A DNA stretch of 31,139 nucleotides from IMG/VR virus record IMGVR_UViG_2531839193_000007; one strand, written 5' to 3'. Below are positions 18,820 to 21,800 of the stretch, piece after piece; positions within the stretch are counted from its first letter, which is position 1; each line of letters begins with the position of its first letter. The position numbers are program-made. This DNA is from a virus. Its lineage: Duplodnaviria > Heunggongvirae > Uroviricota > Caudoviricetes.

Positions 18820-21800
18820 TAACCGCTGATTTACCCGGCGCAGTCTCTCCTGCGCCGGTGTATTAACCTATCTCCTGTAACGCATGTCTCTGGCGTTCGA
18901 CGATATTGGTCCACAAATTGTCTTTATCGTCAGTCCACAAATTAATCAGCAAGGCAAAAAAGCGTTCTGCTGCCGGAGAAAGCACGGCATCTTTGCGGCG
19001 AATAATCCCCAATGTCCGACGTATAACGGGTTCCACCAGTGGAATACCAATAATCGAAGAATAGGGCGCATGGGGCATTGCCAGACCAGGAAGCGCCGAA
19101 ATCCCCAGTCCCGCCTCTACCAGTCCTAATGACGTCGAAAGATGACGCACTTCGTAAAACCAGTCCAGCTTCCAGGGCTTGTCGGCCAGCTGTTGTTCTA
19201 TCAACAGTCGGTTGCCGCTGGAGGAGCGTACGCCAATCATTTTGTAACCCACTAACTCCTGCCATTCTACAAGCTGCTTTTTGGCCAATGGATGGTCACG
19301 CCGACAGGCCAGCACGAACGGCTCGTTGACCAGTGGGGTAAAATCAATGGATGAATTTGTGACGTTGTTCATGTTTATGCCAAAGTCTGATTCGTTACAC
19401 AGCACCGATTCCATGCAATTATTCGTGCCTTGTTCCAGAATCCGCACTTTAATATTGGGATACAGCTCATTAAATTTACCGATTGCCAGCGGTAAAAAAT
19501 AAAATACTGCGGTCGGAATACACGCTAACGTCACCATACCACGATGATAAGCATTCATATCACGAATATTAAAAAGCGTTTCATCGAATTTCTTTATTAA
19601 TTCCCGCGCCTCCGGGAGCAACCTTTTTCCTGCTTTTGTTAACGTAACCTTGCGAGTTGTACGCTCAAATAGTTGAATATGTAAATCTTCCTCCATCTTT
19701 TTTATTCTTCGCGTTAATGCAGGTTGCGTAATATTGAGTAATTTAGCGGCATTGTTAAACGAACTGGACTCTGCCAGTATGACAAATGCCTTCATACTTG
19801 ATAATTCATGCTTCATTATTACTCCGGAAAATGGAAGCGACGATTTTGGGTGGCTGGCCGTTAAAAATTTTAACTGCATTTAGCCAACTTAAATTAATGA
19901 AAAAATGTTATTAATCGTTGAGCTAAAGTCATTAGAGATGCTTTGCCCTTAATGTAACCATATCGCAATAAGTTATGTTTTAAATTGAGGGCATTATTAT
20001 GAAAAAATACCCTGGGTAATGACTCCAACTTATTGATAGTGTTTTATGTTCAGATAATGCCCGATGGCTTTGTCATGCAGCTCCACCGATTTTGAGAACG
20101 ACAGCGACTTCCGTCCCAGCCGTGCCAGGTGCTGCCTCAGATTCAGGTTATGCCGCTCAATTCGCTGCGTATATCGCTTGCTGATTACGTGCAGCTTTCC
20201 CTTCAGGCGGGATTCATACAGCGGCCAGCCATCCGTCATCCATATCACCACGTCAAAGGGTGACAGCAGGCTCATAAGACGCCCCAGCGTCGCCATAGTG
20301 CGTTCACCGAATACGTGCGCAACAACCGTCTTCCGGAGACTGTCATACGCGTAAAACAGCCAGCGCTGGCGCGATTTAGCCCCGACATAGCCCCACTGTT
20401 CGTCCATTTCCGCGCAGACGATGACGTCACTGCCCGGCTGTATGCGCGAGGTTACCGACTGCGGCCTGAGTTTTTTAAGTGACGTAAAATCGTGTTGAGG
20501 CCAACGCCCATAATGCGTGCAGTTGCCCGGCATCCAACGCCATTCATGGCCATATCAATGATTTTCTGGTGCGTACCGGGTTAAGAAGCGGTGTAAGTGA
20601 ACTGCAGTTGCCATGTTTTACGGCAGTGAGAGCAGAGATAGCGCTGATGTCCGGCAGTGCTTTTGCCGTTACGCACCACCCCGTCAGTAGCTGAACAGGA
20701 GGGACAGCTGATAGAAACAGAAGCCACTGGAGCACCTCAAAAACACCATCATACACTAAATCAGTAAGTTGGCAGCATCACCCAAAAAAGGCACTATTGC
20801 CTGGTCTATTCTCTCTTCTCATAATACGTCCGGAAATATGGATAAACTTAAAATTAAGTTTGATTCATTAGCCTCTCACGATATTACCTTTGTTGGTATT
20901 GTACAGACCGCTAAAGCGTCCGGAATGGAACGTTTCCCGCTGCCGTATGTGCTGACCAACTGCCATAACTCACTCTGCGCCGTCGGCGGCACCATTAACG
21001 GTGATGACCATGTTTTTGGTTTATCGGCAGCTCAGCGTTATGGCGGTATTTTTGTGCCTCCGCATATTGCGGTCATCCATCAATATATGCGTGAGATGAT
21101 GGCAGGCGGGGGCAAAATGATCCTCGGGTCAGACAGCCACACCCGTTACGGTGCATTAGGGACAATGGCAGTCGGTGAGGGTGGCGGTGAGTTGGTAAAA
21201 CAGCTGCTTAATGACACCTGGGATATCGACTATCCGGGCGTGGTTGCGGTGCATCTGACCGGAAAACCTGCGCCGTATGTGGGGCCACAGGATGTGGCGC
21301 TGGCTATCATTGGCGCGGTGTTCAAAAACGGTTACGTCAAAAACAAAGTCATGGAGTTCGTTGGACCGGGCGTTAGCGCGCTCTCTACCGATTTCCGTAA
21401 CAGCGTTGACGTGATGACCACGGAAACCACCTGTTTAAGCTCCGTCTGGCAAACTGATGAAGAAGTGCATAACTGGCTGGCGCTGCACGGTCGCGGCCAG
21501 GATTACTGCCAGCTTAACCCTCAACCGATGGCGTACTACGATGGCTGCATCAGCGTTGATTTAAGCGCCATCAAACCAATGATTGCGCTGCCGTTCCACC
21601 CGAGCAACGTGTATGAAATCGACACACTGAACCAGAACCTGACCGACATTCTGCGTGAGATTGAAATTGAGTCCGAACGCGTGGCGCACGGTAAAGCCAA
21701 ACTCTCGCTGCTGGATAAAGTGGAAAATGGTCGCCTGAAAGTGCAGCAGGGGATTATCGCGGGCTGTTCTGGCGGTAACTACGAAAACGTCATCGCGGCG

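Follow-up and report, generated by a model that had tools for sequence, protein, structure and literature searches.

Evidence for an IS1-linked deletion of ybhH-ybhI with a transposase-dead IS1 copy

What removed the genes between ybhD and ybhJ from this genome, and what can the IS1 element that now stands in their place still do? A sequence-only reading of the window (the whole 31,139-nt stretch of DNA analysed here) had given the E. coli K-12 order as pgl, ybhD, ybhH, ybhI, ybhJ, ybhC, and had proposed that one of two IS1 copies, called here copy B, marks the loss of the ybhH-ybhI interval. Comparison with K-12 confirmed this order (pgl-ybhD-ybhH-ybhI-ybhJ-ybhC), and the results presented here make it close to certain that copy B represents an IS1-linked deletion with a transposase-dead IS1 copy.

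The deletion and what remains of its flanks

Alignment to K-12 bore out the proposed loss and defined its extent. Window positions 17824-20014 align to K-12 pgl, ybhD and the first 17 nt of ybhH, the window from 20783 onward aligns to K-12 ybhJ from nt 96, and the K-12 stretch lying between them (NC_000913.3 800776-803597, 2822 bp) is absent. The left joint falls at ybhH nt 17 and the right joint, IRL|CAAAAAAGG, at ybhJ codon 32, the deletion extending 95 nt into ybhJ. Both flanks of copy B directly adjoin exact IS1 termini, with a 1-nt ambiguity at the right joint, where the deleted stretch and the IS1 both end in C. As had been claimed, there is no target duplication at copy B, the 9-bp flanks AATACCCTG and CAAAAAAGG being unrelated. 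The locus shows what defines an adjacent deletion: a single IS kept, exact termini, no duplication, and flanks that map to two collinear reference sites. Moreover, the two genes were not found elsewhere nearby in the same lineage, where their presence would have spoken against the proposal: neither YbhH nor YbhI gave a tblastn match in the window or, for eight S. sonnei genomes, in the 10 kb on each side (related 21-kb loci).

The lost genes encode a PrpF-family isomerase (ybhH) and an anion or tricarboxylate transporter (ybhI), and ybhJ, which encodes an aconitase-family hydratase, was beheaded. ybhH and ybhI have been described as a putative tricarboxylate or malate-related uptake and isomerase pair (PMC9068703), and the Pfam assignments agree with the functions given in that work.

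On the left side, ybhD (18863-19816, minus strand) is an intact gene for a LysR-type regulator of 317 aa, with tblastn covering residues 1-317 at 99.7% identity to K-12 YbhD. YbhD regulates ybhH and ybhI (PMC9068703); since these neighbouring targets are gone, ybhD is left as an orphan regulator. A look-up of YbhD returned ordinary E. coli contexts only. The divergent ybhD-ybhH intergenic region (19817-19998, no strand assigned) has been retained, as judged from its alignment to K-12, FDAARGOS_944 and seven S. sonnei loci. Note that a run of four T at 19978-19981 is particular to the window, the other genomes aligned having five. Next to this region stands the ybhH remnant (19999-20014, plus strand), an ATG and 13 nt delimited by junction alignment to K-12 and 53G. 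These 16 nt of the window correspond to 17 nt elsewhere, the A run at 20002-20007 being one base shorter (A6 vs A7). The sequence-only reading had seen at 19999-20013 a five-codon stub that might be the ybhH start. The start codon is indeed that of ybhH; the five-codon reading, however, rests on the A6 run, which is A7 in every other genome compared.

On the right side, the ORF list and a frame check identified a ybhJ remnant (20783-22949, plus strand) composed of the last base of codon 32, codons 33-753 and the stop. Its product is identical to K-12 YbhJ residues 33-753 at 719 of 721 positions (BLASTP). A ybhJ-like gene does follow the IS1, as had been stated, but it is not intact, as only residues 33-753 remain; the deletion took the native promoter, the ribosome-binding site, the start codon, the first 32 codons and the whole ybhI-ybhJ spacer. 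The reading frame is open back to a TTG at 20769, inside the IRL, and the first in-frame ATG is at 20838. We considered whether a new promoter had been created at the IS1-ybhJ joint and rejected this, since promoter-like sites were no more frequent there than in shuffled sequence. The promoter-like site upstream of the ATG at 20838 is native ybhJ sequence, and the TTGGCA present in the IRL has, by eye, only a 3/6 match to a -10 element at 17 nt spacing. From its sequence, the ybhJ remnant is probably a pseudogene.

To which organism does this locus belong? A search for the exact Pgl protein led to contigs with which the window is collinear at 99.97-99.98% identity over 21 kb, among them HE616528.1, which is S. 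sonnei 53G, and CP060117. A paper on S. sonnei UKMCC1015 cites CP060117. By this collinearity the window is Shigella sonnei chromosome. The right joint is common to the window and to all eight complete S. sonnei genomes (8/8), whose left joints are identical to one another; the window differs from them only by its one-base-shorter A run. Among the genomes compared, CP180280 is the Lineage 1 strain 201809330, and 53G belongs to Lineage 2 (PMC12511311). Since the joints are common to Lineages 1 and 2, the deletion is older than their common ancestor. Thus, the copy B structure is fixed across the sampled S. sonnei and is not special to the genome of the window.

Two outgroup comparisons gave the direction of the change. 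In FDAARGOS_944, which is filed as E. coli, carries ipaH and has the same prophage-pgl joint as the window, ybhH, ybhI and ybhJ are all complete. In addition, ybhH-ybhI is present at a coverage of at least 80% in 5328 of 5426 complete E. coli genomes. On this distribution the deleted state is the derived one.

Copy B and its insA allele

Copy B (20015-20782, insA on the minus strand) is 768 bp long and forms a 768-nt inverted repeat with copy A (16652-17419, plus strand), which served as comparator and in which insA is intact and a 232-aa InsAB' could be reconstructed. The IRR (20015-20037) and the IRL (20760-20782) of copy B have ends identical to those of copy A; they match each other at 18 of 23 positions and finish with the canonical GGTAATG and CATCACC. 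The length of about 768 bp and the imperfect terminal inverted repeats of about 23 bp (GGTGATG.../GGTAATG...) are those of the IS1 family, and so is the arrangement of insA and an overlapping insB' joined by a -1 frameshift at an A6C motif, although in copy B the insA frame is cut by a TAA. Copy B is 99.4% identical to an annotated IS1A of E. coli DS26-1. Its insB frame, which encodes the DDE domain (20030-20533, minus strand), is open and matches the Pfam profile PF03400 with E = 4e-77. The 8-9-bp target-site duplication of a simple IS1 insertion is missing; this is expected after a deletion and was not counted against the identity of the element.

The repeat-finding tool had given copies A and B as 100% complementary. 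The base-by-base comparison of the two copies, which the sequence-only reading had proposed as a check, revealed two differences, at IS1 positions 200 and 716. At position 200, copy A has C where copy B has T (window 20583), which changes insA codon 49 from CAA to TAA; at position 716, the T of copy A is replaced by C in copy B (window 20067), which changes a Val to Ala in InsB. Translation of both copies located the stop at window 20583-20581, within the insA frame of copy B (20452-20727, minus strand). The A6C frameshift motif of copy B lies downstream of this stop, at 20470-20478. For comparison, the InsA of the copy-A counterpart in S. sonnei L006 matches PF03811 and PF12759.

The anatomy of IS1 and its need for the frameshift have been described, and in InsA and InsAB' the zinc finger and the helix-turn-helix are both required for binding the IS1 ends (PMC12428005). 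Since the stop precedes the frameshift site, copy B can yield only a 48-residue InsA fragment, which on translation is devoid of the helix-turn-helix, and no InsAB'. The earlier claim on codon 49 was therefore sound, insA is not open through the frameshift site as it is in an autonomous IS1, and copy B cannot produce full-length InsA or the InsAB' transposase. With both ends intact, it could be moved only by the transposase of other IS1 copies. It can also still serve as a substrate for homologous recombination.

Is the nonsense allele as widespread as the joint? The alleles were compared in the window and seven S. sonnei genomes; the genome L013 was left out, its copy being incomplete. T200 was found in six of the eight full-length copies B (the window, L005, L006 from Lineage 2, L008 from Lineage 1, L011 and L012), and assemblies L009 and L010 carry the wild-type C. 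C716 is carried by the window, L005, L009, L011 and L012, and all four combinations of the two alleles occur among the compared copies. Both alleles are rare among the IS1 copies of E. coli, T200 having an exact match in only about 7 of 8770 IS1-bearing records and C716 in at most 18 of 9374 records, which identifies them as locus-specific mutations and not as common IS1 variants. Most simply, T200 is ancestral to the sampled S. sonnei and was present before Lineages 1 and 2 split. L009, L005 and L011 have in common an additional IS within the lambda-type integrase. Since L005 and L011 carry T200, the C200 of L009 looks secondary; it could come from gene conversion from IS1 A or another copy, or from polishing with multiply mapped reads. 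With L009 and L010 both carrying C200, gene conversion or an assembly error must be part of the history of the allele. That this dead insA allele was repaired at least two times in S. sonnei (L009 and L010), by gene conversion from other IS1 copies, is a minor possibility that we hold to be improbable.

The spread of these alleles also bears on whether the joint or the TAA could be a mis-assembly or sequencing artefact of a repeated element. Several observations would suit an artefact: polishing is difficult in IS copies, the IS1 copies of L013 are collapsed, two homopolymer differences beside the IS are private to the window, and the alleles at positions 200 and 716 occur in every combination. 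However, the joints are common to eight independent complete assemblies, the rare TAA allele occurs in most of the full-length copies and in both lineages, and polishing errors would drive a copy toward the common C and not away from it. We consider an artefact extremely improbable.

The arrangement of the two copies is also of practical relevance. This Pgl protein occurs in 494 database blocks, in 354 of which it lies on no contig longer than 2-5 kb, and we infer that these contigs are short-read assemblies that break at the two IS1 copies around the 2.6-kb pgl-ybhD segment. This segment between inverted IS1 copies is accordingly a place where short-read assemblies fail. Since IS-internal alleles differ between assemblies, they are not to be trusted unless reads span the whole element.

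How the deletion may have arisen

A 70-nt probe across the right joint identified exactly the same IRL|CAAAAAAGG joint in E. coli PSS-11 (NZ_AP027694.1). That genome has intact ybhH and ybhI and carries IS1 as a simple insertion that agrees with copy B in target base and orientation and is flanked by an 8-bp duplication (CAAAAAAG). AR_0119 (NZ_CP021535.1) and KFu015 carry IS1 at the same base in the opposite orientation. The IS1 of PSS-11 is a different, IS1B-like variant, 98.8% identical, so the insertions at the ybhJ site are independent and PSS-11 is an analogue of copy B, not its ancestor. These matches place the right joint at a preferred, recurrent IS1 target and show that it was made by transposition. 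Moreover, the existence of a PSS-11-type insertion with an intact interval means that a plausible precursor state occurs in nature. The left-joint probe gave no match in the 5426 E. coli genomes. We rejected the idea that the whole ybhH-ybhI interval is a hot region for IS1, since 40 of 5426 genomes have IS1 in or near it, about what is estimated from IS1 copy number; across these genomes, the single ybhJ site alone stands out.

The recurrence of the right joint weighs on a scenario in which an IS1-unrelated deletion, by slippage or illegitimate recombination, came first and IS1 inserted at the new joint later. A-rich runs adjoin both breakpoints and would suit such an event, although this support is not specific. 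A later simple insertion would have left an 8-9-bp duplication, which is not present, and a coincidence would be needed to place the right joint exactly on the site used by IS1 in other genomes. No 2.8-kb deletion free of IS1 was seen among the best-ranked matches of the ybhD-to-ybhJ interval against the 5426 genomes, a search not designed for this purpose. This scenario seems to us barely credible.

We consider it probable, with reservations, that a single-IS1 adjacent deletion produced the copy B structure. In this model, one IS1 would have inserted in the ybhH-ybhJ interval and then performed an intramolecular replicative transposition (adjacent deletion). One IS1 end would have been fused to a second site, the 2.8 kb between them would have been removed as a circle, and the chromosome would have retained a single IS1 lacking a target duplication. 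Adjacent deletions are a known product of IS1 activity; this, together with the smaller number of events required, is why the single-IS route is favoured. Both this route and the order in which the joints were formed are what we infer. The recurrent right joint would fit three histories equally well: it could be the site of the first insertion, from which an adjacent deletion then ran leftward, the site of a later intramolecular attack by an IS1 first inserted at ybhH, or one of two independent insertions.

The last of these histories leads to a different proposal, in which two IS1 copies in direct orientation, at ybhH nt 17 and at ybhJ codon 32, underwent RecA-dependent recombination and left one hybrid IS1 with no matching flanks. 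The final structure would be identical. In addition, no other IS is as abundant in S. sonnei as IS1 (PMC7373316), the window itself holds two copies only 2.6 kb apart, and E. coli provides a case of simple insertion at the right-hand site. This route requires three events vs two, and IS1 occupies the left-hand site in none of the 5426 E. coli genomes; nor is an intermediate kept in any sampled S. sonnei genome, all eight being already deleted, though neither of these two absences is decisive. We regard recombination between two copies as unlikely, yet as an alternative to be taken seriously. The sequence-only reading had called the locus consistent with an IS1-mediated adjacent deletion. The consistency stands, but it falls short of proof, since recombination between two IS1 copies gives the same product, and sequence alone cannot separate the two routes.

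Could copy A have taken part in a single-IS1 adjacent deletion at copy B, or in some rearrangement of the segment between the two elements? The Lineage 1 genome 201809330 has a K-12-like ybhA'-pgl spacer upstream of pgl and carries neither IS1 A nor the neighbouring prophage, which means that the copy A and copy B events are independent. A composite transposon IS1-pgl-ybhD-IS1 was rejected, as its outer flanks, GACGAATGA and CAAAAAAGG, do not match. An inversion or duplicative inversion between the two copies was also rejected: no flank is the reverse complement of another, and the orientation of pgl-ybhD relative to ybhJ is as in K-12.

Copy A is itself deletion-linked and also has no target duplication. 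It replaces 19,075 bp of prophage kept by FDAARGOS_944, from the major capsid gene, through the tail genes, to ipaHb. Two further IS elements in the window coincide with DNA missing relative to FDAARGOS_944. The possibility that the prophage DNA missing at copy A had moved to 29664-31139 was rejected, since this segment also matches a tail-fibre gene of the lambda-attB prophage and an IS600-linked deletion explains its position; the segment was treated as a paralogue.

Comparison with known systems

The closest analogues of the right joint are the insertions in PSS-11 and AR_0119. They share the ybhJ target base with copy B, and PSS-11 shares also the orientation and the joint; they differ from copy B in having the 8-bp duplication, intact ybhH and ybhI and the IS1B-like variant. 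A parallel to the deletion itself is found in the O121 strain 201805972 (NZ_CP119441.1), where a single IS1 in the same orientation replaces ybhH-ybhI with no duplication. In contrast to S. sonnei, the stretch deleted in this strain corresponds to K-12 locus positions 10708-13372 and ybhJ is intact. Strain VL7S7 gave the same two-piece search match as 201805972 and probably also carries IS1 in place of ybhH-ybhI, the joints having been mapped only in 201805972. Both are E. coli positive for ipaH, the marker of invasive E. coli, so that an IS1-replaced ybhH-ybhI occurs in 2 of the 10 ipaH-positive genomes of the collection, one of them (VL7S7) by inference. Since the two strains are probably one clone, this convergence is only a hint. 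Whether the loss of ybhH-ybhI is favoured in invasive Shigella and enteroinvasive E. coli, with IS1 entering repeatedly through the hot spot at ybhJ codon 32 and with separate IS1 events in S. sonnei and O121, is a speculation that we hold to be doubtful.

The classic precedents are the IS1-promoted adjacent deletions reportedly described by Reif and Saedler in 1975 for the gal-pgl-bio region of E. coli, and the IS1-promoted adjacent (replicative) deletions said to have been analysed by Turlan and Chandler (EMBO J 14:5410, 1995). As in copy B, the joint retains a single IS1 and shows no duplication, and its flanks are collinear with two reference sites a few kb apart. Even the chromosomal neighbourhood, gal-pgl-bio, is the same. 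The classic cases arose under laboratory selection, whereas copy B is a natural event, fixed in a pathogen lineage, whose sequence is compatible with transposition as well as with recombination.

Finally, IS-driven gene loss is established in Shigella, with IS1 as the main contributor of insertions (Hawkey et al. 2020, PMC7373316). The present case resembles that process in the dominance of IS1, in the loss of near-core E. coli metabolic genes, and in that other IS elements of the window also mark deletions. The main text of that study does not name the ybh genes, and its text-form supplements contain no ybh names or b-numbers. The copy B finding leaves current understanding unchanged, and it illustrates that transposase-dead IS copies can remain structurally relevant in these genomes. 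Gene loss driven by IS elements is well known in Shigella, and the copy B deletion is an ordinary case of it, which extends the list of IS1-driven losses in S. sonnei by one well-documented, lineage-wide example.

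Alleles and homopolymer runs at the ybhH-ybhI replacement

We compared the Shigella sonnei assemblies at two derived alleles of IS1 B, the copy that replaces ybhH-ybhI (window 20015-20782, minus strand). These alleles, at IS1 positions 200 (window 20583; the stop at insA codon 49) and 716 (window 20067; Val-to-Ala in InsB), occur in all four combinations among loci L005-L012, and the gene caller predicted an intact 232-aa InsAB' from the IS1 B copy of one of these loci, L009. Either gene conversion repairs dead IS copies, or the alleles that the assemblies report inside the IS are untrustworthy. 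In the 4.54-Mb S. sonnei assembly CP029794.1 both IS1 copies carry internal gaps of ~300 bp (9145-9593 and about 12443 of its locus, L013), most likely caused by repeat collapse during assembly.

Beside IS1 B, the window has the runs T4 (19978-19981) and A6 (20002-20007), each one base shorter than in every locus compared (T5 and A7 in 7 full-length S. sonnei and 4 E. coli loci). These runs, both no more than 40 nt from the IS1 joint, are the sole gaps relative to CP060117 across 21 kb, and could represent either real slippage or sequencing error near the repeat. With the short runs the ybhH stub reads MKKYPG*; with the longer ones it gives a 12-letter reading.

IS1 A, the prophages and other repeats

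A target duplication is also absent at IS1 A (window 16652-17419), as judged by comparing its flanks. This copy stands in the place of 19,075 bp retained in the ipaH-positive strain FDAARGOS_944 (19987-39061 of its locus, L003). In that stretch lie the capsid-to-tail genes of the prophage, ipaHb (an effector gene) and the first part of a pin invertase gene. The left joint lies 4 nt inside the major capsid gene.

Upstream of pgl (window 17420-17826), the similarity to K-12 ends 3 nt short of the pgl ATG, where prophage DNA (a pin remnant) starts. The prophage may have integrated at the very start of pgl, giving this gene a new upstream region. The K-12-like spacer is present in the Lineage 1 S. 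sonnei strain 201809330 (9700-10000 of its locus, L008), whose ybhA has a 749-bp internal deletion.

Four further IS elements are found in the window (599-1858, 5586-6834, 7571-8901 and 28403-29665). A 1249-bp IS stands in for a phage tRNA cluster kept in FDAARGOS_944, and an IS2-like element, which shows a 5-bp overlap, resembles a simple insertion. Of two IS600-like copies, the second fuses early lambda-type genes directly to a tail-fibre gene, which implies that ~42 kb are missing from the lambda-attB prophage. The ybhJ-ybhC interval carries, at window 22964-23130, two 74-nt direct repeats, 92% identical and both present in K-12, which we suspect to be REP-type intergenic repeats.

IS1 at ybhJ and ybhH-ybhI in other genomes

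IS1 has inserted repeatedly at codon 32 of ybhJ (K-12 803598-803606), where the 8-bp duplication CAAAAAAG lies within an A-rich stretch. Both IS1 orientations occur there in unrelated E. coli (PSS-11, AR_0119 and KFu015); IS1 at this site occupies 6268-7035 in locus L015 and 5256-6023 in locus L019. In TUM9812, CH4784, 23AR0998, ANT and Ec-2844, further copies of IS1 are located about 200 bp or less from it.

Finally, the ipaH-positive E. coli O121 strain 201805972 (NZ_CP119441.1) carries IS1 at 5268-6035 of its locus, L016, in place of ybhH-ybhI. Its deletion covers positions 10708-13372 of the K-12 locus, with ybhJ intact and the target duplication absent. This deletion, which VL7S7 probably shares, is an independent event.
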